From the NCBI GenBank assembly GCA_963728665.1, contig CAVSLG010000018.1:43762-107761 (forward strand): a stretch of 64,000 nucleotides of DNA, in the 5' to 3' direction. This document shows, in pieces, positions 43,183 to 64,000 of this stretch. A model generated the notes under the pieces. It saw only the letters and a program-made list of their open reading frames with translations. It did no database searches and had not been told where the DNA came from. The position numbers and the translations under genes were made by a program. The DNA comes from an uncultured Actinomycetes bacterium (GTDB taxonomy: Bacteria > Actinomycetota > UBA4738 > HRBIN12). Position 1 is the first letter of the stretch, and each line of letters starts with the position of its first letter.

Positions 43183-44958
43183 TCAGGGCCCGAGGTAGGA
43201 GTCTCGTGAGACGCCTGGCTCGTCTGTCCAGAAGGTGAAGGAGGACGTGGCCCTGCCGGAGCGGCCGATCTGCACCACATCGACTGCCTGCCCGATCCGC
43301 TGTCCAGAACGAGACCGCACGATCTCGGATGGGACCTGAATGTCCCCGTCAAACACCATCATTTCGATCGTCCCTGAGACGTGATCCGATGACCATTCGA
43401 TACGCAGCCAGCCGCGAGTCCAGATCGGCTCCGAGGTTCTGAGAACCACCTCTCCCTTTCGATCGCGGGCGCGGAGGTCGCCTCCAGGGGTGATCTCGAT
43501 AGAGACGCTTGTCGCGCCCTTGTGTTTGGCCCGAACGAGTTGGAGCGGTTCCTTTGGCGCTCGAGGAAGCCAGACGTAGAAGCGTCCGAACCAACGATCG
43601 CTGACTCCGAAGGAGTGTCCGTATTCGTAGAAGGCATTCTCGCCAGGGCCGGCCTCGTGCTTGGCGGCAAGCCCGGAGTGCGCACGTCTCGAGTCGTAGA
43701 TCAAGCTCGCCCCGCGCTCGGCCTTGACCGAATCAAAGGCTGACCCGCTGGCGCCACCGCTGTTCGCGCGCGTGATGCCTTCCCCTGGCGACCCTCCGTC
43801 GAGTGAGTTGGTGAGGGGGCTAGGGCTAGGGCTAGGGCTAGGGCTAGGGCTAGGGCTAGGGCTAGGGCTAGGGCTAGGGCTAGGGCTAGGGCTAGGGCTA
43901 GGGCTAGGGCTAGGGCTAGGGCTAGGGCTAGGGCTAGGGCTAGGGAATGGCCTTCCACTCAGATGACCATCGGCCCCCATCTGCGCGTAGCCGGCCATCG
44001 ATGAGGATGAGCTGTCGGTGATCCAGGGCCTGCCGTCCTTGATCTCGTCGAAGTAGATCAGTCCCTTGAGCTCGGGCCAGGTCTTGGCGGTCGCGAGCGC
44101 GTCGATGATCCACTGGCCCTTGCGACCGGGGACCGCCGGATCTTCCTGCGCTCCCCACTCCACCGCCATCCAGGGCTTGGCGTGTCGAACGGCGAAGTCC
44201 TGGGTCGGTTGGAAGACGGTCTGGAAGGAGTTCCACGTGGATCCGGGCTTCGTGGGGTAGAAGTTGTAGCCGTCGCTGCCGATCAGGTCGACGTGGGCGT
44301 CGCCCGGGTAGTAGTCCTCGATCGGCTTGCCTGAGCGAGGATCGAACGTCCAGGCCATCATCGTCCAGACGAACGCGACGTTATCCACGCCCTGTGCGCG
44401 GAAGACGTCGACCACGTGCCGGAACGCGGCGGCGTACTCGGCGGGGGTGCCCCAGGTCGCGAGGTCGTCCTCGGGCTCGTGATGCAGAGAGAGGTAGACG
44501 GGCACCCCGAACGCCTCGATCGCATCCGCCCTCGCGATGATCGCCGCGTCTTCGGCCCCAGAGGCGATCCTGGACCACGTGATCGCCTGACCGTTCTGGC
44601 GCTGCGCCTTCCAGTTCAAGAACGGGATCCGCCCCTGGCCCACCGTCCAGGCCTCGTGGGCCCCGGGGAAGTTCGAGTCCCACTTGTAGTACTGATGGTC
44701 GATCGCGAACCGACGCCCGATCTGGGACTCCACCCGCACGATCGCGTCGGCGCGAGACTCACCGGCACGGGGAGCGACCCAGCTCCCGAAGTAGGCGCCG
44801 GACGAGGGGATGAGGACGGCGGGAGGACCGACGGGAGCGGCGCTCACCGCCGTCGGGGCGACCAGGCCCGAGGCGAGCGCCATGCACGAGAGTAGCGCGA
44901 CGACGGTCTTCCCCAGCGAACCTGCAGAGAGCCGTGGAATGGACGAGGGGGTTGCCAT
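43183..44958 (-). CDS. Secreted GH26-like glycoside hydrolase (cassette copy C), then a (Pro-Ser)21 linker and a C-terminal beta-sandwich (lectin/ConA-like?) domain
   Basis: Signal peptide TVVALLSCMALASGLVAPTAVSA. The catalytic domain is identical to copies B and D. A PSPSPS... run precedes a 190-aa C-terminal domain (WFGRFYVWLP...WLRIEWSSDHVSGTIEMMVFDGD...). Confidence 0.7.
   Translation of the reverse strand: MATPSSIPRLSAGSLGKTVVALLSCMALASGLVAPTAVSAAPVGPPAVLIPSSGAYFGSWVAPRAGESRADAIVRVESQIGRRFAIDHQYYKWDSNFPGAHEAWTVGQGRIPFLNWKAQRQNGQAITWSRIASGAEDAAIIARADAIEAFGVPVYLSLHHEPEDDLATWGTPAEYAAAFRHVVDVFRAQGVDNVAFVWTMMAWTFDPRSGKPIEDYYPGDAHVDLIGSDGYNFYPTKPGSTWNSFQTVFQPTQDFAVRHAKPWMAVEWGAQEDPAVPGRKGQWIIDALATAKTWPELKGLIYFDEIKDGRPWITDSSSSSMAGYAQMGADGHLSGRPFPSPSPSPSPSPSPSPSPSPSPSPSPSPSPSPSPSPSPSPSPSPLTNSLDGGSPGEGITRANSGGASGSAFDSVKAERGASLIYDSRRAHSGLAAKHEAGPGENAFYEYGHSFGVSDRWFGRFYVWLPRAPKEPLQLVRAKHKGATSVSIEITPGGDLRARDRKGEVVLRTSEPIWTRGWLRIEWSSDHVSGTIEMMVFDGDIQVPSEIVRSRSGQRIGQAVDVVQIGRSGRATSSFTFWTDEPGVSRDSYLGP
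43817..43942. repeat. Perfect hexanucleotide microsatellite (GGGCTA)21, which is (TAGCCC)21 on the coding strand. It encodes the (Pro-Ser)21 linker.
   Basis: Read directly from the sequence: 126 bp of uninterrupted GGGCTA units. Confidence 0.95.
43975..44805. repeat. About 0.83 kb GH26-like cassette DNA repeat, copy C
   Basis: See copy B. Confidence 0.8.
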
Positions 44959-45234
44959 GCGGAGTGCCTCCCTCGCCTGCCTGGCGGGGACGGGACAACC
45001 TCGCATCCCCCTGAGTCAGGCAGACGAACCAGTCGGGGTATGAATCGGCGTGCGGGCTGGGGATGCTTGAGTGGGGCGATAGGGCGCTCTTTGGACCCCC
45101 CATCCAGGGGACAGACATGAGCGAGATGAGGCTGGACGATGTCTGGCAGGGACGCACGGTAGGACGTTTCCACGTGTGAGACGGAGAGAAGACGACGTCG
45201 CCTACCGATTTCCGCGAAGGACGGCACTACTGTT

Positions 45235-48109: not shown

Positions 48110-48565
48110 TCAGACGAACGGCTTCTCCTGGCCCCCGAGACCCATGCCCACGAGCAACCCGGCGCCCAGCCCGCCGTTCACGACCGCGAGCGTCCAGAAC
48201 GGCCACGCGTCGGCACCCTCGGGTACCCCGAAGACCGCGTTGATCGCGAAGACGGTTGCGGTGCCGACCTCGAGCACGGCGAACGCCCACGACCACCACC
48301 AGAGCTCGTCGATCTTCTGGGCGACGAGCACCATCAACAGCGCCAGCACGACTCCCATCACTGCGGCAGCCCGGACCCACACGTAGTCGGCGAGCACGGG
48401 CTGGCCGAAGAGGCCTTCCAGCACCCAGCGGGGGAACAGCCCGACCGCCACGCTCCACACGAGCCACAGCGCGGCCTGCACCTTCAGCAACCGTCGCAGA
48501 AGCTTCACGAGCGTCGTCCTTTCCCGGGTGGGCCGGGTTTCGAGCGGTTGGTAGGATACGCGCAC
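48110..48565 (-). CDS. Hypothetical small integral membrane protein
   Basis: 151-aa ORF with 3-4 hydrophobic helices (ALWLVWSVAVGLF, AAAVMGVVLALLMVLVA, WSWAFAVLEVGTATVFAINAVFG, WTLAVVNGGLGAGLLVGMGL). Confidence 0.45.
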   Translation of the reverse strand: MRVSYQPLETRPTRERTTLVKLLRRLLKVQAALWLVWSVAVGLFPRWVLEGLFGQPVLADYVWVRAAAVMGVVLALLMVLVAQKIDELWWWSWAFAVLEVGTATVFAINAVFGVPEGADAWPFWTLAVVNGGLGAGLLVGMGLGGQEKPFV

Positions 48566-48630
48566 CGCGGAGCACCCCTTCGCTCAGCGCGTCGGCGCGC
48601 GGCTTCCGCACCGTTTCCGTCTCTGAGAGG

Positions 48631-48821
48631 ACGCAGCATGCAACGAGCGCTCAAGTACCGAAGGGGTAGCGCATGATCGATGCGCTCAAGTACCGAAGGG
48701 GTAGCGCATGAACGACGCGCTCAAGTACCGAAGGGGTAGCGCATGATCGACGCGCTCAAGTACCGAAGGGGTAGCGCATGAACGACGCGCTCAAGTACCG
48801 AAGGGGTAGCGCATGATCGAT
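48631..48821 (+). repeat. Tandem 35-bp repeat (about 5.5 copies) reiterating the Shine-Dalgarno, ATG and first codons of the downstream gene
   Basis: Unit GCGCTCAAGTACCGAAGGGGTAGCGCATGA(T/A)CGA(T/C). Copies start at 48647, 48682, 48717, 48752 and 48787. The last copy supplies the real ATG at 48813. Each earlier ATG opens a 12-codon mini-ORF M(I/N)DALKYRRGSA whose TGA overlaps the next ATG (ATGA). Confidence 0.9.
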
Positions 48822-50210
48822 GGACCCAGGGTCGCGGTCATCGGCCTCGACTGCGGTGCGCCGAAGCTCCTGTTCGAGGACCTCGCCGACGAGGTGCCGA
48901 ACCTGCGGAAGATCTTCGCCAACGGCATGTACGGCGACCTCGCGAGCATCACGCCGCCGATCACCGTGCCGGCGTGGGCATGCGCGATGACCGGCAAGAC
49001 CCCCGGTCAGCTCGGCATCTACGGCTTCCGCAACCGCAAGGACACGAGCTACGACGGCCTGCAGGTCGCGACGTCGCTCTCGGTGAAGGAGCCGGCCGTC
49101 TGGGACGCGCTCGGGGGCGCCGGCAAGCGTTCCCTGTTGATCGGGGTGCCGCCCGGGTTCCCACCTCCGAAGGAGTTCCCCGGCTGGCGCGTGGCCTGTT
49201 TCCTCACGCCGCCGAGCGCCGATCGCTACGCGTTCCCCGCCGAGCTCGAGACCGAGATCTCAGAAGAGCTGGGCGAGAACGATTACATCTTCGACATCCC
49301 GAACTTCCGCCAGCAGGGCCCCGACTTCGTGATGGACCAGATCTTCAAGATGACGGAGCGGCGGTTCCAGGTGGCGAGGCGCCTGATCAAGAACAAGCCC
49401 TGGGACTTCTTCATGATGGTCGAGATGGGCCTGGACCGGCTGCATCACTGCTTCTGGCAGTTCTACGACCCGCAGCACCCGCTCTACGAGGCCGGCAACA
49501 AGTACGAGACGGCGTTCCACGACTACTACCGCTTCCTCGACCAGCAGGTGGGCACCCTGCTCGAGGTGCTGCCGGAGGACGTCGTCACGATCGCGATGAG
49601 CGACCACGGCGCGCGCCCCATGATGGGGGGCCTCTGCTTCAACGACTGGCTGATCCAAGAGGGGTACCTCGTCCTGAAGGAGCCGGTGCGCGAGATCACA
49701 CCGATCGCGAAGGCCGACATCGACTGGAACCGCACGGTGGCATGGGGCGACGGCGGCTACTACGGGCGCTGCTTCCTGAACATCAAGGGCCGCGAGCCCA
49801 ACGGCATCCTCGAGCCGGCGCAGTACGAGACGCTGCGCAACGAGATGATCGCGAAGCTCGAGGCCCTGCCCGGCCCCGACGGCCGCCCGATGGGCACCAC
49901 GGTGCACAAGCCGCAGGACGTCTACTCCGAGGTCCGCGGCGTGGCGCCCGACCTGATCGTGTACTTCGGCGACCTCGATTGGCGCTCGGTGGGTGCCGTC
50001 GGCAACCCCAGCATCTACACGTTCGAGAACGACACGGGTACCGACGGCGCCAACCACGACCGCACCGCGTTCTTCTCCATGGTCAACCTTCCCGGGCAGG
50101 CGATGGGCCGTGTGGAGGGCATGAACCTGGTCGACGTCGGCCCGTCGATCCTGTCCCTGTACGACATCGAGGCGCCGGCCGGCGCCGTCGGAAGGAGCTT
50201 CCTGCAGTGA
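48813..50210 (+). CDS. Type I phosphodiesterase / nucleotide pyrophosphatase (NPP) family enzyme of the alkaline-phosphatase superfamily. Cytoplasmic, with no signal peptide.
   Basis: VAVIGLDCGAPKLL (metal-site Asp) and PPITVPAWACAMTGKTPGQ, which matches the NPP PTxTxPNHxxxxTG nucleophile-Thr motif. MSDHGARP (HG metal ligands). Intact 465-aa ORF. Confidence 0.8.
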   Translation: MIDGPRVAVIGLDCGAPKLLFEDLADEVPNLRKIFANGMYGDLASITPPITVPAWACAMTGKTPGQLGIYGFRNRKDTSYDGLQVATSLSVKEPAVWDALGGAGKRSLLIGVPPGFPPPKEFPGWRVACFLTPPSADRYAFPAELETEISEELGENDYIFDIPNFRQQGPDFVMDQIFKMTERRFQVARRLIKNKPWDFFMMVEMGLDRLHHCFWQFYDPQHPLYEAGNKYETAFHDYYRFLDQQVGTLLEVLPEDVVTIAMSDHGARPMMGGLCFNDWLIQEGYLVLKEPVREITPIAKADIDWNRTVAWGDGGYYGRCFLNIKGREPNGILEPAQYETLRNEMIAKLEALPGPDGRPMGTTVHKPQDVYSEVRGVAPDLIVYFGDLDWRSVGAVGNPSIYTFENDTGTDGANHDRTAFFSMVNLPGQAMGRVEGMNLVDVGPSILSLYDIEAPAGAVGRSFLQ

Positions 50211-50833
50211 GCGAGCAGCAAGGGTTCACCGTCTGGTTCACGGGCCTCTCGGGATCGGGCAAGTCCACGATCGCCGAGATGCTCTTCCACGAGTTCCAGG
50301 CACGAGGATTCAAGACCGAGATCCTCGACGGCGACGAAGTGCGCAAGAACCTCTCGAAGGGCCTCGGGTTCTCGAAGGAGGATCGCGACACCAACATCCT
50401 GCGCATCGGGTTCGTCGCGAACCTGCTCACCCGCAACGGCGTGGTGACGATCTGCTGCCCCATCAGCCCCTACAAGGAGACGCGCGACGCGTGCCGCGAG
50501 CAGATCGGCGAGTTCGTCGAGGTCTACGTGCACGCGACGGTCGACGAGATCGCCGCGAACCGCGATCCCAAGGGCCTCTACAAGAAGGCGCTGGCGGGCG
50601 AGATCACCGGGTTCACCGGCGTCGACGACCCTTACGAGGTGCCCGTGGATCCGGAGATCACTGTCGACACGCTCTCGCAGACCCCCGAGGAGTCGCTGCA
50701 GCACGTGCTCACCCGGCTGAAGGAGCTCGGTCGTCTCGAGGACGACGACGTGCACGTCACGGGCGACCGGGTGCACTCGGGCCTCACCGACCTGCGTGTC
50801 AGCGAGGCCGGCACGGTCGTCAAGGAGCACTGA
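50207..50833 (+). CDS. cysC: Adenylylsulfate (APS) kinase
   Basis: GTG start overlapping the upstream stop (GTGA). SD gaaggag 10 nt upstream. P-loop VWFTGLSGSGKSTIA. The full length is APS-kinase-like (...DGDEVRKNLSKGLGFSKEDRDTNILRIGFVA...). Confidence 0.9.
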   Translation: MSEQQGFTVWFTGLSGSGKSTIAEMLFHEFQARGFKTEILDGDEVRKNLSKGLGFSKEDRDTNILRIGFVANLLTRNGVVTICCPISPYKETRDACREQIGEFVEVYVHATVDEIAANRDPKGLYKKALAGEITGFTGVDDPYEVPVDPEITVDTLSQTPEESLQHVLTRLKELGRLEDDDVHVTGDRVHSGLTDLRVSEAGTVVKEH

Positions 50834-57735: not shown

Positions 57736-60042
57736 GTGAACGCCGTCTCCCCCCTGCTCGAGGGCCTGAACGACATCCAGACCGAGGCGGTCCTGCACAC
57801 CGAGGGACCGGTCCTGATCGTGGCCGGCGCCGGCAGCGGTAAGACCCGGGCGCTCACCCACCGCATCGCCTACCTGATCCGGGAGCGGGGTGTCTCACCG
57901 TTCGAGATCCTCGCGATCACGTTCACGAACAAGGCGGCCCGCGAGATGGCCGAGCGGGTCGAGGGCATGCTCGGGGAGCGGGTCACCCGTGGCATGTGGA
58001 TCCTCACGTTCCACTCGACGTGCGCTCGCCTGCTCCGGCGCGAGCACACTCACCTCGGCGTGCCGAGCGGATTCACGATCTACGACGACGGCGACACCGA
58101 GCGCCTGATCGCCGGCATCCTGAAGGATCTCGACCTCGATCCGAAGCGCTTCCCGCCGAAGGCGATGGCGAGCGCGATCTCGAGCGCGAAGGACCGGGTG
58201 ATCGGTCCCGACGACTTCGCGAGCATGGCGAGCAACTTCTACGAGGAGACGATCGCGAAGGTCTATCACGCGTACGAGCGGCGCAAGCGTGATGCCGGCG
58301 CTCTCGACTTCGACGACCTGATCACCGAGACCGTACGGCTGTTCCGCGAGCATCCCGAGGTGCTCGAGCACTACCAGGAGCGGTTCCCGTACCTCATGGT
58401 CGACGAGTACCAGGACACGAACCGCGCGCAGTACGAGCTCGTGAACCTGCTCGCCGCGAAGCACCGCAACGTGTGCGTCGTCGGCGACGCCGACCAGGGT
58501 GTGTACAGCTGGCGCGGCGCCACGATCCAGAACATGCTCGACTTCGAGCGCGACTACCCCGATGCGACCGTCTTCCTCATGGAGCAGAACTACCGCTCGA
58601 CCCAGAACATCCTGGAAGCGGCGAACGCGCTGATCGAGCACAACCAGCAGCGCAAGCCGAAGGCGTTGTGGACCGAGGCGGGCTCGGGCGAGTTGATCGT
58701 TCGGTTACGCGCCGACGACGAGCACGAGGAAGCGTTCTTCGTGGTCGACGAGATCGAGCGGTTACGCGAGACCGAGGGCTTCCGGCTCTCCGACGTGGCG
58801 ATCTTCTACCGCACCAACGCGCAGAGCCGAGTGCTCGAGGACGTGCTGATGCGTGTGGGCACGAACTACCGGGTCTTCGGCGGGGTGCGGTTCTACCAGC
58901 GCCGGGAGATCAAGGACGTGCTCGCGTACCTGCGCCTGCTGATCAACCCGCAGGACGTGATCTCGTTCCGGCGCGTCGTGAACACCCCGAAGCGTGGCAT
59001 CGGCGACGCCACGGTCGCGGCGCTCGAGTCCTTCGCCGACACCGAGGTCATCGACGTGGTCGAGGCGTGCCGGCGCATCGACGAGATCGCGGTGCTGCAG
59101 ACGCGGGCGAAGGGGGCCGTCGCGGGCTTCAACACGGTGATGGAGGCGATCCGGCGTCATCACGACGACGGCGCCGGGCCGGCACGCATGGTCGAGTTCG
59201 CCGCGATCGAGTCGGGCTACCTCGCCGAGCTCGAGGAGGAGCGCACGGTCGACGCGCAGGGGCGCATCGAGAACATCCAGGAGCTGGGAGGGGTGGCCGC
59301 CGAGCTGCTCACCCGTGAGCCCGACGCCGGTCTCGAGCAGTTCCTCGAGCAGGTGTCGCTGATCGGGGAGCAGGACGAGTACGACGAGGACGCCTCGAGC
59401 GTGACCCTGATGACCCTGCACATCGCGAAGGGGCTCGAGTTCCCGGTCGTGTTCATCGTAGGCATGGAGGACGGCATCTTCCCCCACTTCCGCTCGATGA
59501 CCGACGCCGCAGCCCTCGAGGAAGAGCGTCGCCTGGCGTACGTGGGCATCACGCGCGCGCAACAGCGCCTGTACCTCACGCACGCGTGGAGCCGCACGAT
59601 CTACGGGCAGACGCAGTACAACCCGCCCTCACGCTTCCTCGGGGAGGTGCCGGAGCATCTGTTCGACGTGCGCGAGAGCGAGGGAGCCGCGACCGGGTAC
59701 GGAGGGCGGTACACGGGTGGCCGCCAGGCTGGACGAGGCTCCGGAGCCGCCGGGTATCCGGGAGCGGGCCGCGGCGGCGGCCGTGTGATCGGCGGACGCC
59801 GCGAGCACGACGACGACGACCGCCCGCCGCAGGACTGGACGCCGCCGCAGCCCAAGAGCGTCCCGATGCGCGAGGCGCCGGTGATCGCGGCCGGCGACAC
59901 GGTCGTGCACGAGCGCTGGGGCGAGGGGGTCGTGCTCGCGGTGAGCGGCGCGGGCGACGGCACCGAGGCCACGATCTCCTTCCCCGAGGTCGGGGAGAAG
60001 CGGGTGCTGCTCGCCTACGCCCCCCTCAGGAAGGCGGGGTAG
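57736..60042 (+). CDS. pcrA: ATP-dependent DNA helicase PcrA/UvrD family
   Basis: GTG start. Walker A AGAGSGKTRALTHRIAYL. Helicase motifs TFTNKAAREM, VDEYQDTNRAQY, TLMTLHIAKGLEFPVVFIVGMEDG, YVGITRA. Intact 768 aa. Confidence 0.9.
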   Translation: MNAVSPLLEGLNDIQTEAVLHTEGPVLIVAGAGSGKTRALTHRIAYLIRERGVSPFEILAITFTNKAAREMAERVEGMLGERVTRGMWILTFHSTCARLLRREHTHLGVPSGFTIYDDGDTERLIAGILKDLDLDPKRFPPKAMASAISSAKDRVIGPDDFASMASNFYEETIAKVYHAYERRKRDAGALDFDDLITETVRLFREHPEVLEHYQERFPYLMVDEYQDTNRAQYELVNLLAAKHRNVCVVGDADQGVYSWRGATIQNMLDFERDYPDATVFLMEQNYRSTQNILEAANALIEHNQQRKPKALWTEAGSGELIVRLRADDEHEEAFFVVDEIERLRETEGFRLSDVAIFYRTNAQSRVLEDVLMRVGTNYRVFGGVRFYQRREIKDVLAYLRLLINPQDVISFRRVVNTPKRGIGDATVAALESFADTEVIDVVEACRRIDEIAVLQTRAKGAVAGFNTVMEAIRRHHDDGAGPARMVEFAAIESGYLAELEEERTVDAQGRIENIQELGGVAAELLTREPDAGLEQFLEQVSLIGEQDEYDEDASSVTLMTLHIAKGLEFPVVFIVGMEDGIFPHFRSMTDAAALEEERRLAYVGITRAQQRLYLTHAWSRTIYGQTQYNPPSRFLGEVPEHLFDVRESEGAATGYGGRYTGGRQAGRGSGAAGYPGAGRGGGRVIGGRREHDDDDRPPQDWTPPQPKSVPMREAPVIAAGDTVVHERWGEGVVLAVSGAGDGTEATISFPEVGEKRVLLAYAPLRKAG

Positions 60043-60045
60043 CGC

Positions 60046-63000
60046 TCAAGGGCAGGGTTCGACGTGGAGATACTGGCGGCACTCCTCGTCGGAGAGTTGC
60101 CTCGTCACCTTCGTGCCGGCGATCGCGATCAGCTCGTCGAGATCGAGCTCCCAGACGCGGACGAGGCCGTCCGGCGCGGCCGATGCGAGCCGCCGTCCGT
60201 CGGGGCTGAACGCGATGCCCGAGACGAGGTACGTGTGGCCCCGCAGGACCAGTTGCTGGATCCCCTGCTCCGGGTTGAACAGTCGGACGGTGGCGTCCAT
60301 GCCGGAGGTCGCGATCCGCCCGCCGTCCGGGCTGTAGGTGATGTTCTCGATGCTTCCGGAGTGCGCGGGGAACCGGAGCACGCGCTCGAGGCCGGGCACG
60401 GAGAAGATCTCGACGATGCCATCGAAGCGCGCCACGGCGAGCTCCGACCCCGTGGGATCGAACGCCACGCCCGTCGCCCCGATCGGCTCGATCGAGCCCT
60501 CGATCGCCTCGCCTTCCCAGTCCCAGATCGACACGTGGTTCTGTTGCGGCTTGGCGATGACCGACACGGCGGTCGCGATCCTGCTCCCGTCAGGGCTGAA
60601 CGTGACATCGTCGATCTGCCTCCAGCTGCCCTCCTCGACCAACCTTGCCACCTGCTCTCCCGTCGCATCGAGCACGGTCGTGCTCCCATCCCATGTCCCG
60701 ACGACCAGGTGCTCGCCGTCGGGGCTCCAGTCGGCGGCCGAGATCTCCTCCCCGATGGGTACCTCGAACACGGCGTCCCCCGTTCCGACATCCCACGCGG
60801 TGATCGTGTCGCTGAAGAGGCGAACGGTCGCGATGCGCGATCCGTCGGGACTCACCTCGATCAGCCAGACGGCCCGAGGGGATCCTGCGCCGGGACCGAT
60901 CGTCGCAGCCTCACCCTCGCGCACGTCCCATAAGGTGACGGATCCCTCGTCGCTCGGTGCGACGATCCGTCCGTCCGGCAGGTACGCGACATCGACGGGA
61001 GCCAGCTCGTCGGTGGGCAGGTTCGCCACCTCGGCATCGCCGTCGATGGTCACGTCCCAGATCTTGACCGCAGTGATCGCCGTATCGCCGGTCAGGACCC
61101 CGTTGCCGTTGGGAGAAAACGCGGCGAACGTGCCCGACCTCGTCTGCTGCGCCGAGAGCGTCAGCACCTCGCGGCCCACCGCGTCGTCGATCTCCCACAC
61201 CCTGGCGGTCCCGTCGCTGCCTCCGGTCACGAGCCGTTTCGAGTCGCGTGCCCAGTCCACCGTCACCACGACACCGGTGTGACCGACGAGCTCCGTCTCC
61301 AACCGCTCGGTCGCTGCCTCCCACACGCGTATCGACGAGTCGTTGGCCCCGGTCGCGATCCACCGACCGTCCGGGCTCCACGAGACGGAGTTGATCGTAT
61401 AACTGTGCCCCCGGAGGTCGAACGCGCGCTCGCCGGTGGCGACGTCGAAGACGGCTCCGACAGGGGTGTTGCCCATCCCGACCGCGACGTGCTCGCCATC
61501 TGGGCTCAGGGCGGTGTCGAAGGGATTGTCGGGCAAGGAGATCGTGCGAACGATCTCGCCGGTCGACGGATCGACGATGCGGGTCTTCCTCTCGGATATC
61601 CATGCCGCCGCGAGGAGCGATCCGTCGGCGTCGAAGGACTGCCCGAGCACCGGTCCCTCCCCCTGGATCACTGACACCTGGTCGCCGGTTGCCGGATCCC
61701 AGATGCGGAGAGCGCCGTCGTCACCTCCCGTCGCGAGGAGTGATCCGTCGGGCGAGAAGCGGACGTCGTTGACGTCGGGGTCGTGGCCCTCCCACGACCG
61801 GACGATCTCGCCGGTCGATGCGTCCCTGAGCTCGATCATGCGGCTGTCCTCGGGGCCTTCGGTGACGAACACGCCCTCAGGGCTCCAATCGAGGTTGCCG
61901 CCGGCGCCCGACGCCGTGAGCACGATGCGGGAAGCGGTCACGGCACTGTGCAGAGCTTCTTCCGCCTCGGGGAGGACCGTGCCGTCGACCGACCGCGTTC
62001 GATCGATGGATTCGAGCGCGAGGAGGATGCTGCGCTCGGGATCGACCTCGAGACTGGCGACGGACGCCGCCGCGAGCTCGCGAGCCTGCGCGGTCAGCTC
62101 CTGGTCCTGGGCCTTCCGCTGCTGGCTCATCGCGAAGAGCGTCAGGGCGCCGGCCACGACCGCTGCGACCGTCAGCACGGCGACGATCGTGCGCAGCCGG
62201 CGCACCGACCGTCGTTCGAGCTCCCGTTCGTGGTCCTGGCGCGTTCGCTCCTCGACCTGCACCCGGTCCCGCTCGGCGGCGGCCGCGTCGAGGAACGCGC
62301 TCTCCTCGGGGGTGAGCGCCAGCGGCGACCCGCCACGCCACGCCTCGATCTGCTCGAGGCGCGATCCCGAGATCAGGAACGACGGATCGCGGTCGGCGTC
62401 GGCCCAATCGCGCGCCGCCGCAGCGAGCCGTCGCTCGGTGCGTATGTCCTCCCGCGCGGCGTCGATCCATCGTCCGAGCCGTCGCCACGCGGAGAGCATC
62501 GCCTCGTGCGCCAGCTCGATCGTCGGTTCGCCCGTGCGGACATCGCGGTCGAACGTGAGCTGGCGCGAGGTTCCATAGGTCTCGATCACCCACGACATCG
62601 CCTGCTGGTCGAGGTCGAGCGAGGTGATCTCGGCTCGCGACACCCGTCGACGCGTGTCCTCCGTGCCTTCGCCGAGCGCCACCAGGTGCAGGAACAGCTG
62701 TCGCGCCGCGTCCTTCCCGGCCGCGTCGAGCCCGTCGTAGATCTCCTCCGCCCGGCGACCGAGCGCGCCCGAGACCCTGCCGATCTCCCGATAGGAGCCG
62801 AGCGTGATCATGCGACCATCCCGCCGCTCGAACAGCTCGGTCAGCGCGTACTCGAGCAGGGGGAGCGCGCCCGGTTCCTCGGCGACGTCGGCAAGCATCG
62901 CGGCCACGAGCCCGGTCTCCAGGGAGACGTCGGCCCGTTCGGCCGGCTTCGTGATCACCTGCTCGAGCTGCTCGGCCGAGAGCGGGACCAGCGACTCGAC

Positions 63001-64000
63001 GCGCGCCGCGAAGAGGTCCGCGAATCCGCGGTAACGAAGGGGCCGATCGTAGAAGTCCGCTCGCAGCGTGACGATCACCCGTAGGCGGCTGTGGGGATCG
63101 CTCACCGCGGCCTCGAGGCTACCGAGGAAGTGCCGGCGGGCATCCTCGTCGTCAACGAGGGTGAAGACCTCCTCGAACTGGTCGATCACGAGCACGAGCT
63201 CGGAGCGGTCGGACGGCAGGACCCGGAGCACGGCTCGGTGGAGCCCGCGCTCATCGGATCGGAGCTGCTCGATCAGGCTCGGTGGTGGGTCCATGGCGAC
63301 CTTCAGCAACGCCGCCTCGAGCCCGTCGAGCGGGTACGGGCCCGGGAACATGTCGGCGATCGGCCAGGTATCAGATCCGGCGATCGCGCCACGACGCAGG
63401 GCCGGGATCAACCCTGCGCGGACGACCGACGACTTCCCGCTGCCGCTCGGTCCGACGAGCGCGAGGAACCGCGTCTGCGACAGGCGATCGACGAGCTGCT
63501 CGATCAGGTCGTTGCGTCCGTGGAAGTCGGGGGCGTCGCCCTCCTCGAACGCGCGCAAGCCCTTGTAGGGGTTCGCCACGATCGCGCCCGGGCCGGCTGG
63601 TTGGAGCCGGGTCCCCGACGCGCCCAGCGCCCGCCGGAAGGCGACGTCCTCGGCCGCGTCGTCGGCTTCCGCCTTCAGTCGCATCACGTGGACCGGGTGA
63701 GCGATCCCCTTGAGCTGCACCGTACCCCGATCGACGGACGCGACGCCGTCCACCTTGCGGGCCAGATGCACGACCTCGCGGCTGGCGAGGATCTCCCCGG
63801 GTCCCGCGATCGCGCACAGGCGCGCGCCGAGGTTGAGGGCGCCCCCCCGATAGCCCCCCTCGACGGAGACCGCTTCGCCGGCGTCGAGACCGATGCCCAC
63901 CGGAAAGGGAAGCGATGGATCGGCGACGGTCTCCTCCACGAACCGGCGCTGCAGGTCGATCGCCGAACGGATCGCCTGCCGGGTCGACGTGAAGACGCAG
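60046..64000 (-). CDS. Adenylyl/guanylyl cyclase domain - STAND (NACHT/NB-ARC-like) NTPase - single TM helix - WD40 beta-propeller protein. The 5' end extends beyond the window.
   Basis: C-terminal half of a class III cyclase domain (FPVGIGLDAGEAVSVEGGYRGGALNLGARLCAIAGPGEILAS). Walker A LALVGPSGSGKSSVVRAGL and Walker B LVLVIDQFEEVF. TM RLRTIVAVLTVAAVVAGALTLFAM flanked by R-rich N-side. At least 10 WD40 repeats (ALRIWD, SIRVWEA, ARVWE, VRVWE...). 1297-aa intact ORF to 63939; the upstream part probably lies beyond 64000. Confidence 0.8.
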   Translation of the reverse strand, partial: CVFTSTRQAIRSAIDLQRRFVEETVADPSLPFPVGIGLDAGEAVSVEGGYRGGALNLGARLCAIAGPGEILASREVVHLARKVDGVASVDRGTVQLKGIAHPVHVMRLKAEADDAAEDVAFRRALGASGTRLQPAGPGAIVANPYKGLRAFEEGDAPDFHGRNDLIEQLVDRLSQTRFLALVGPSGSGKSSVVRAGLIPALRRGAIAGSDTWPIADMFPGPYPLDGLEAALLKVAMDPPPSLIEQLRSDERGLHRAVLRVLPSDRSELVLVIDQFEEVFTLVDDEDARRHFLGSLEAAVSDPHSRLRVIVTLRADFYDRPLRYRGFADLFAARVESLVPLSAEQLEQVITKPAERADVSLETGLVAAMLADVAEEPGALPLLEYALTELFERRDGRMITLGSYREIGRVSGALGRRAEEIYDGLDAAGKDAARQLFLHLVALGEGTEDTRRRVSRAEITSLDLDQQAMSWVIETYGTSRQLTFDRDVRTGEPTIELAHEAMLSAWRRLGRWIDAAREDIRTERRLAAAARDWADADRDPSFLISGSRLEQIEAWRGGSPLALTPEESAFLDAAAAERDRVQVEERTRQDHERELERRSVRRLRTIVAVLTVAAVVAGALTLFAMSQQRKAQDQELTAQARELAAASVASLEVDPERSILLALESIDRTRSVDGTVLPEAEEALHSAVTASRIVLTASGAGGNLDWSPEGVFVTEGPEDSRMIELRDASTGEIVRSWEGHDPDVNDVRFSPDGSLLATGGDDGALRIWDPATGDQVSVIQGEGPVLGQSFDADGSLLAAAWISERKTRIVDPSTGEIVRTISLPDNPFDTALSPDGEHVAVGMGNTPVGAVFDVATGERAFDLRGHSYTINSVSWSPDGRWIATGANDSSIRVWEAATERLETELVGHTGVVVTVDWARDSKRLVTGGSDGTARVWEIDDAVGREVLTLSAQQTRSGTFAAFSPNGNGVLTGDTAITAVKIWDVTIDGDAEVANLPTDELAPVDVAYLPDGRIVAPSDEGSVTLWDVREGEAATIGPGAGSPRAVWLIEVSPDGSRIATVRLFSDTITAWDVGTGDAVFEVPIGEEISAADWSPDGEHLVVGTWDGSTTVLDATGEQVARLVEEGSWRQIDDVTFSPDGSRIATAVSVIAKPQQNHVSIWDWEGEAIEGSIEPIGATGVAFDPTGSELAVARFDGIVEIFSVPGLERVLRFPAHSGSIENITYSPDGGRIATSGMDATVRLFNPEQGIQQLVLRGHTYLVSGIAFSPDGRRLASAAPDGLVRVWELDLDELIAIAGTKVTRQLSDEECRQYLHVEPCP

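Follow-up and report, generated by a model that had tools for sequence, protein, structure and literature searches.

An array of five head-to-tail 35-nt units (positions 48647-48821 of the window, by which we mean the whole 64,000-nt stretch of DNA analysed here) stands at the start of an operon encoding an AlkP-superfamily phosphodiesterase (NPP) and an APS kinase (cysC). The array is probably a MIRU-like minisatellite whose units are self-contained translational-coupling cassettes. Each unit carries four parts, namely a TGA for the incoming short ORF, a TAG, a Shine-Dalgarno (SD) sequence GAAGGGG, and a start codon overlapping the TGA as RTGA. Ribosome entry would be at the ancestral SD, at any of the unit SDs, or at both; after 12 codons the ribosome would stop at the UGA and start anew at the AUG that overlaps it, until the last AUG leads into NPP-cysC. 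From this arrangement of signals in the DNA, we infer that the mini-ORFs are translated and that re-initiation takes place. The array presumably expands and contracts through slippage or unequal recombination, and its copy number may tune the output of NPP-cysC.

The five units can be read from the sequence laid out in rows of 35 nt, and Tandem Repeats Finder reports them at 48647-48820 with a period of 35, 5.0 copies, 96 % matches and a score of 327, in agreement with the earlier note, which had described a 35-bp repeat reiterating a ribosome-binding site and start codon about five times. Each unit is built of a 26-nt core (GCGCTCAAGTACCGAAGGGGTAGCGC), followed by ATGA and a 5-nt tail. The 30-nt string formed by core and ATGA (GCGCTCAAGTACCGAAGGGGTAGCGCATGA) occurs in five exact copies in the window, all of them in the array, and nothing resembling it at up to 3 mismatches was found elsewhere in the 64 kb (shuffle expectation 0.00). 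The units vary solely at positions 31 (T/A) and 35 (T/C), which read T..T, A..C, T..C, A..C and T..T along the array. Six ATGs stand in 35-nt register (48638, 48673, 48708, 48743, 48778 and 48813), and the first five each open a 12-codon ORF whose TGA shares an ATGA with the next ATG (Table 1). Since the unit length is 3n-1, the RTGA overlap is renewed at every unit boundary. Within every unit, the GAAGGGG lies 6 nt upstream of the start codon and a TAG is placed in frame with the next ATG, two codons ahead of it; the TAG that is in frame with the NPP start would thus halt ribosomes arriving from upstream in that frame. These frames fit the chain of ATGA-coupled 12-codon mini-ORFs that had been proposed, mini-ORFs 1-4 encoding the peptide M(I/N)DALKYRRGSA*. 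There are indeed five mini-ORFs, although the first of them starts at ATG 48638, outside any unit, and its TGA overlaps the ATG at 48673. With an ATGA overlap and an SD for each unit, the geometry is that of a coupling chain, as expected for the translational coupling leader that the earlier note listed among its possibilities. A CRISPR array was considered and rejected, as the units abut directly, without spacers.

Table 1. Features at and around the start of the NPP-cysC operon (positions in the window)
Feature	Position	Strand	Basis or remark
132-aa membrane protein gene, divergent	48110..48508	-	translation and synteny
TTGGTAGGATACGCG block	48548..48562	+	leader alignment by eye
Ancestral SD GAGAGGA	48625-48631	+	same position in element-free relatives
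Mini-ORF 0, MQRALKYRRGSA*	48638..48676	+	starts at ancestral NPP ATG, reads into unit 1
Five 35-nt units	starts 48647, 48682, 48717, 48752, 48787	+	35-nt row layout
Mini-ORFs 1-4	48673-48711, 48708-48746, 48743-48781, 48778-48816	+	ATGA-linked, 12 codons
Last-unit SD GAAGGGG	48800-48806	+	read from sequence
TAG in NPP-start frame	48807-48809	+	read from sequence
NPP / AlkP-superfamily phosphodiesterase, 465 aa	48813..50210	+	Pfam PF01663, E = 3e-38
APS kinase (cysC)	50207..50833	+	GTG start overlaps NPP stop as GTGA

Homologues of the NPP number in the thousands, nearly all 464-466 aa long and from uncultured Actinomycetota. Around the closest of them, we fetched 11 element-free orthologous loci, which share the synteny of divergent 132-aa membrane protein, NPP and APS kinase, with an intergenic spacer of 124-150 bp; the membrane protein gene is the left neighbour of NPP in all relatives compared. 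In all 11 leaders, gagagga(t)cgcagcATGCAGCAA is followed directly by GGACCCAGG (GGACCCAGGGTC in its longer form), the protein begins MQQGPR, and the position of mini-ORF 0 reads ATGCAGCAA and then GGACCC. The window leader instead reads gagaggacgcagcATGCAACGA, 5 x 35 nt and GGACCCAGG, the longer form again ending in GGACCCAGGGTC. The array has been inserted into the ancestral NPP ORF behind codon 3 and, at 175 nt, breaks its frame; the earlier description of it as a leader repeat falls short in this respect. Because the element-free relatives start NPP there, ATG 48638 and its SD are ancestral, and the ancestral start codon today drives the first mini-ORF. NPP itself now starts at the ATG of the last unit, so that its N-terminus becomes MID-GPR, as opposed to MQQ-GPR in the element-free relatives. 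The ATG at 48813, which had been taken for the genuine start, is accordingly the functional start today but not the ancestral one, the relatives starting at the equivalent of 48638. The gene tolerates such an insertion because a stop, an SD and a start come with every unit. The junction between NPP and cysC is itself a native -4 coupling overlap (GTGA) within the same operon.

The same leader had been raised as something to look for in related genomes, and it is present at the orthologous NPP start with one unit in L013, L014 and L023 and two in L029, so that relatives and window together hold 0, 1, 2 or 5 units at this locus. In L013 and L014, the locus reads ATGCAGCAC, core, ATGATCGAT or ATGAACGAT, and then GGACCC, and a 12-codon uORF running from the ancestral ATG is ATGA-coupled to the new start. 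The NPP gene of the window is 93.8 % identical in nucleotide sequence to that of L013, 93.1 % to that of L014, 91.1 % to that of the zero-copy L001, and 82-84 % to those of the other relatives. A neighbour-joining tree on 357 nt, the stretch held in common with the short contigs, groups the window with L013, L014, L023 and L029 to the exclusion of L001, the placement of L029 resting on a short alignment. The distribution would be most parsimoniously explained by one gain at the NPP locus, followed by changes in copy number (1, 1, 1, 2, 5). In this scenario, the cassette would have entered NPP after codon 3 in the ancestor of the window, L013, L014, L023 and L029, so that a 12-codon mini-ORF took over the ancestral SD and ATG and NPP received a new start; the array would then have grown from one to five units in the window lineage, most likely by slippage or unequal recombination. 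The recent slippage expansion proposed in the earlier note is well matched by this lineage-specific pattern, in which relatives at 93-94 % identity have one unit and the outgroup has none.

Upstream of the array, a block (TTGGTAGGATACGCG) is present in every NPP leader of L001-L014, though the surrounding leader diverges. Judged by its sequence, it is probably an extended -10 promoter element (TGnTAGGAT), in which case the whole array would fall within the transcript. A sigma-70 scan of the leader with an E. coli-type consensus returned nothing, TTGGTAGGATACGCG included, and a terminator scan of the leader detected no terminator-like site.

The neighbourhood of the operon has features of its own. 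A stretch of ~38 kb (10141-48109) has a GC content of 65.0 %, compared with 69.4-69.5 % in both flanks, and is missing from the relatives L023, L014 and L029, where an ELFV dehydrogenase gene directly adjoins the gene for the 132-aa membrane protein. Big_7 domains occur in the proteins it encodes, namely a phytase, several GH26-like proteins and Malectin proteins. The stretch has the look of an acquired island of surface or secreted enzymes and ends ~530 nt from the array; no tRNA was found in the 64-kb window. At 43817-43945, a perfect (GGGCTA) x 21.5 hexamer repeat within a minus-strand ORF (43183-45006) encodes a (Ser-Pro)22 linker of a GH26-like protein and, given its 100 % nucleotide identity, is likely a second length-variable, in-frame repeat. 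Two 12-nt Tandem Repeats Finder consensus sequences, CACCGCGACCGA and CGGTTGGAAGA, recur in three places each (30643, 37265 and 41286; 33461, 44206 and 46887), and these recurring units mark paralogous Big_7 / GH26-like genes in the island. On the other side of the operon, GGGGTAGCGCTCAAG at 60036-60050 joins the 3' end of a unit to its own 5' end over 15 nt; this apparent circular junction spans the convergent stops of two ORFs (57736-60042, plus strand; 60046-63939, minus strand) and was set aside as probably a chance match.

The module is also found at other loci. An exact 23-mer from the core occurs in four places in three long-contig MAGs labelled 'uncultured Actinomycetes', two being the NPP loci of L013 and L014 and two being unrelated loci in the third MAG (L012 and L015); the same 23-mer had no match in the JGI metagenome and viral collections. 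A looser metagenome scan with the SD-to-start half-unit gave 11 matches, and with one further look-up it brought up L020, L022-L025, L027, L029 and L031, most of them with tandem arrays of the module. Four of the 11 (L021, L026, L030 and L028) share the 3' 20 nt only, lie in unrelated contexts and were discarded as chance. The hosts of the element belong to an uncultured Actinomycetes lineage from soil and sediment metagenomes.

The second locus is the junction of two phytoene-dehydrogenase-like (FAD-oxidoreductase) cistrons. Three identical sequences (L015, L016 and L017) have one core between these cistrons, the stop of gene 1 overlapping the ATG of an 11-codon mini-ORF (MTALKYRRGSA*) whose TGA in turn shares bases with the GTG of gene 2. 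Of two orthologues, L018 (94 % protein identity) has a core variant with one substitution and 35-nt spacing, and L019 (89 %) has an empty site with a simple TGATG overlap. Copy number at this junction is 0 in L019, 1 in L015-L018 and L020, 2 in L025, 3 in L024, L027 and L031, and 5 in L022. The first codons of the downstream oxidoreductase (VNQALE..., VSRALKQR...) hold the 5' part of another unit, with partial extra unit sites in L022 (1398-1412), L025 and L031 (6589-6603); the array thus reaches into the protein and has rewritten its N-terminus.

The third locus is the 5'UTR of an Lrp/AsnC-type gene in L012, with one unit that lacks the -4 coupling to the gene and whose ALKYRRGSA frame has no start codon. 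Five relatives of this gene (L032-L036) do not have the core even with 8 mismatches allowed, which makes L012 a third independent gain. The 5'UTRs of these relatives (for example, L033 1395-1430) have a 13-nt tandem repeat of their own, AACGACCTGAGCC, in 2-3 copies, and the AACGAC within it matches the tail of the window units. The AsnC-like ORF of L012 (4801-5187) is 128 aa long, compared with 77 aa in all homologues, which could reflect a lost stop codon or a long-read consensus indel.

Three loci were found altogether, with at most two per MAG. Searches for diverged copies with nhmmer, blastn-short and fuzzy regular expressions found none beyond the arrays listed above in the window and all fetched loci, and no further copies were present in 303 kb of related DNA. 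In all 21 element-bearing sequences from the three loci, the start codon of the unit faces the downstream gene. The period is exactly 35 nt in the window, L022, L024, L025, L027, L029 and L031, and RTGA is kept in every unit. Furthermore, an in-frame ATG or GTG with an SD stands 1-3 codons before the first core at all loci except L012.

Copy number differs between close relatives at the second locus as well, in line with the variability suspected before. The flanks of L022 and L025 are 100 % identical over 1298 + 467 nt, and the arrays have 5 and 2 units; those of L020 and of L024/L027 are 99.2-99.5 % identical, with 1 and 3 units, respectively, and L024 and L027, which come from independent samples, have the same 3-unit array. 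Some of these differences rest on short-read assemblies, in which the number of perfect repeats may be miscounted; L022, with 5 identical units over 175 nt, is the most exposed to this. The 1-versus-3 case is the most trustworthy because the array covers 105 nt, its units are non-identical and it is reproduced in two samples. The same concern applies to the window, whose five-copy array could be an assembly artefact with a true state of one or two units: assemblers are known to struggle with perfect tandem repeats, and look-ups of the exact NPP, cysC and membrane protein sequences of the window returned no identical records elsewhere. We consider this quite improbable, since the alternating unit variants create distinct junction contexts, unlike a collapsed or looped stutter, and independent assemblies likewise contain arrays of this period, with 2, 3 and 5 units, the 3-unit array being identical from two samples. 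The argument of the earlier note that the alternation of variants speaks against an assembly stutter is thus strengthened by the order of the units and by the presence of the same module in independent assemblies.

Over 15 distinct units, positions 1-5, 7, 11-19, 22-26 and 28-30 are invariant and include the SD, TAG, start and TGA; position 27 is A or G only, giving ATG or GTG as start, and positions 31-35 are nearly random (1.4-1.9 bits). With a canonical anti-SD assumed, the ancestral SD is predicted to pair at -9.4 kcal/mol and the unit SD at -8.9 kcal/mol, compared with a median of -5.1 kcal/mol for random 20-mers, and each SD is ~0.6 unpaired in the predicted structural ensemble. The two SDs are similar in predicted strength and accessibility. 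One could also read the core as a cis-regulatory site, a hairpin or a site bound by a protein or sRNA, through which NPP-cysC, the oxidoreductase pair and the AsnC-like gene are regulated together; several copies in tandem would then multiply binding sites and the mini-ORF geometry would be secondary. The core indeed hardly varies, not even where a change in the mini-ORF would be synonymous, in contrast to the almost random tail and to the mini-peptide, which is not conserved; the core variants T10 and C10 track genome lineage and not locus; and a unit can fold into a hairpin that shows GAAGG in its loop (-10.2 kcal/mol). However, neither this hairpin (z = -1.85) nor the fold of the whole leader significantly exceeds shuffles in stability, the inner stem is broken in two units with no change to compensate for it, there is no stem covariation, and an Rfam scan of the leader gave only a sub-threshold hit to M23 on the other strand (14.5 bits against a gathering threshold of 41.2, E = 7.3). 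An SD, a stop and a start require the very positions that are invariant, coupling accounts for the strict 3n-1 period and the RTGA where a binding-site model does not, and the three operons have no evident common functional theme. Together, these points make co-regulation through the core distinctly unlikely.

The possibility that the mini-ORFs encode a functional micropeptide made in several copies is scarcely credible, even though all five 12-codon ORFs come with an SD and a start codon: the changes in the peptide are mostly nonsynonymous (5 nonsynonymous and 3 synonymous distinct changes, with Y/H, K/M, K/T, G/V and G/E), residues 2-3 are hypervariable, and the ALKYRRGSA frame of L012 lacks a start codon. 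A repeat of variable copy number at the 5' end of a cysC-containing operon also brings to mind a contingency locus (phase switch) or a leader-peptide attenuator sensing amino acid or sulfur status. Both are highly improbable here. An attenuator would be at odds with the absence of terminator-like or alternative-hairpin structures and with a peptide, M(I/N)DALKYRRGSA, in which neither a run of Cys or Met nor other regulatory codons are seen, and the same module lies between two unrelated cistrons at the second locus. As for a phase switch, each copy number keeps an SD and ATG in the NPP frame, and the stops block all incoming frames, so there is no OFF state. No copy number removes the in-frame start, and an ON/OFF frame switch is therefore impossible; the copy-number-variable expression switch entertained in the earlier note is not supported, and a rheostat is the most that could be kept of it. 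For the coupling cassette, by contrast with such a switch, any copy number of at least one keeps NPP-cysC translatable, and copy number is therefore free to drift.

Certain tails recur at more than one locus. The first NPP unit of L029 is identical at 35/35 positions to oxidoreductase units of L024 and L027, including the tail AAGGTG, and the tail AACGAC is shared by the NPP locus (window, L013, L014 and L023), the oxidoreductase junction (L018) and the AsnC locus (L012). At the AsnC locus, AACGAC is native leader sequence in the element-free relatives. Judged from these sequences, recombinational copying or conversion among dispersed copies would fit the pattern of tails, and the lineage-bound core variants, better than cut-and-paste transposition. 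The core in L018 is flanked by GTGAAACAA and GTGAAACGA; other sites lack such flanks, and a target-site duplication, of which no consistent case was seen across the sites, was not adopted as a reading of L018. A bolder reading, which we regard as unlikely, would have the minimal 30-35-nt module act as a portable initiation cassette that is actively spreading to first codons, perhaps by a recombinational or enzyme-mediated route, with copy number as a heritable rheostat of translation, or would have the core bound by a trans-acting factor that links the three operons.

The earlier note was aware of no described regulatory element of this type, a view that does not hold, because the mycobacterial MIRUs share the architecture (PMC5056196; PMC2734929; PMC12548453, citing Supply et al., 1997). 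MIRUs are direct tandem units of 40-100 bp, found at 41 loci in M. tuberculosis H37Rv, of which 12 are polymorphic; small ORFs lie within them, and they run in the same orientation as the adjacent genes (PMC5056196). They are apparently mobile and insert at start codons, where their ORF is coupled to the gene at -4 nt, so that expression is affected as little as possible (PMC12548453, citing Supply et al., 1997). As a mechanism, termination-reinitiation at -4 overlaps is established (PMC12548453, citing Huber et al., 2019, 2023). In M. tuberculosis, a longer MIRU-VNTR upstream of fpg1 was correlated with higher expression (PMC2734929). Like MIRU-VNTRs, the units described here are direct, head-to-tail and of minisatellite size, not palindromic; they sit at gene starts or intercistronic junctions, co-oriented with the flanking genes; they are polymorphic in copy number, with element-free orthologous sites in relatives; and, with the exception of L012, they have in common a small ORF per unit, insertion at start codons and coupling by a -4 overlap. 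They differ in a unit of 35 nt in every array as opposed to 40-100 bp, in a host that is an uncultured Actinomycetes lineage and not Mycobacterium, in a unit that lies within the ancestral NPP ORF and replaces its first three residues, and in tails common to several loci, which suggest recombinational exchange. Furthermore, three loci were found here as against 41 in H37Rv, and with so few found, 'interspersed family' is a weak description. By analogy, the element would work like a MIRU-VNTR and can be regarded as a new family of that kind, likened by architecture and not as a member of the MIRU sequence family.

Other known systems resemble the element in part. In natural -4 (NTGA) gene pairs coupled by termination-reinitiation and in synthetic bicistronic-design leaders, the stop of a short upstream ORF overlaps a start, the SD for that start is embedded in the first ORF, and the idea is likewise that the short ORF brings ribosomes to the downstream start (PMC12548453). 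Such pairs and leaders are single junctions, whereas the cassettes here are reiterated, variable in copy number and dispersed. REP/BIME, ERIC, NEMIS/Correia, BOX and RUP elements are similarly short, with a weak hairpin, several loci and presence/absence polymorphism (PMC3110155). These elements, however, are typically extragenic, in both orientations and in many copies, without an SD-start-stop module, unlike the window element, which is strict in orientation and start-codon register. A REP or RAYT-mobilised element was rejected on account of the weak hairpin, the few copies and the gene-oriented placement only.

To our knowledge, MIRU-type repeats are known almost only as mycobacterial typing markers, how they spread and whether their copy number tunes translation being still unsettled. 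In the present case, an unrelated-looking 35-nt unit from uncultured soil Actinomycetes has this architecture, and over three loci its sites are empty, hold a single copy or have expanded. This suggests that 'stop + SD + start in a 3n-1 unit' may be a general way to live at gene starts, by which such a repeat would occupy them without killing the gene. Outside mycobacteria, the element is a clean and minimal example; at the NPP locus one can see with unusual clarity how an insertion into the first codons of an ORF comes to its own rescue, and the unit offers a very small, well-defined cassette for measuring coupling efficiency per unit. It also carries a warning for annotation, as the true start of such genes is in the last unit and the N-terminus is rewritten, here from MQQ to MID. 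If the cassette were indeed actively spreading, or its core bound by a trans-acting factor, this would go beyond what is established for MIRUs, and start-codon-seeking minisatellites would be a general actinobacterial phenomenon.
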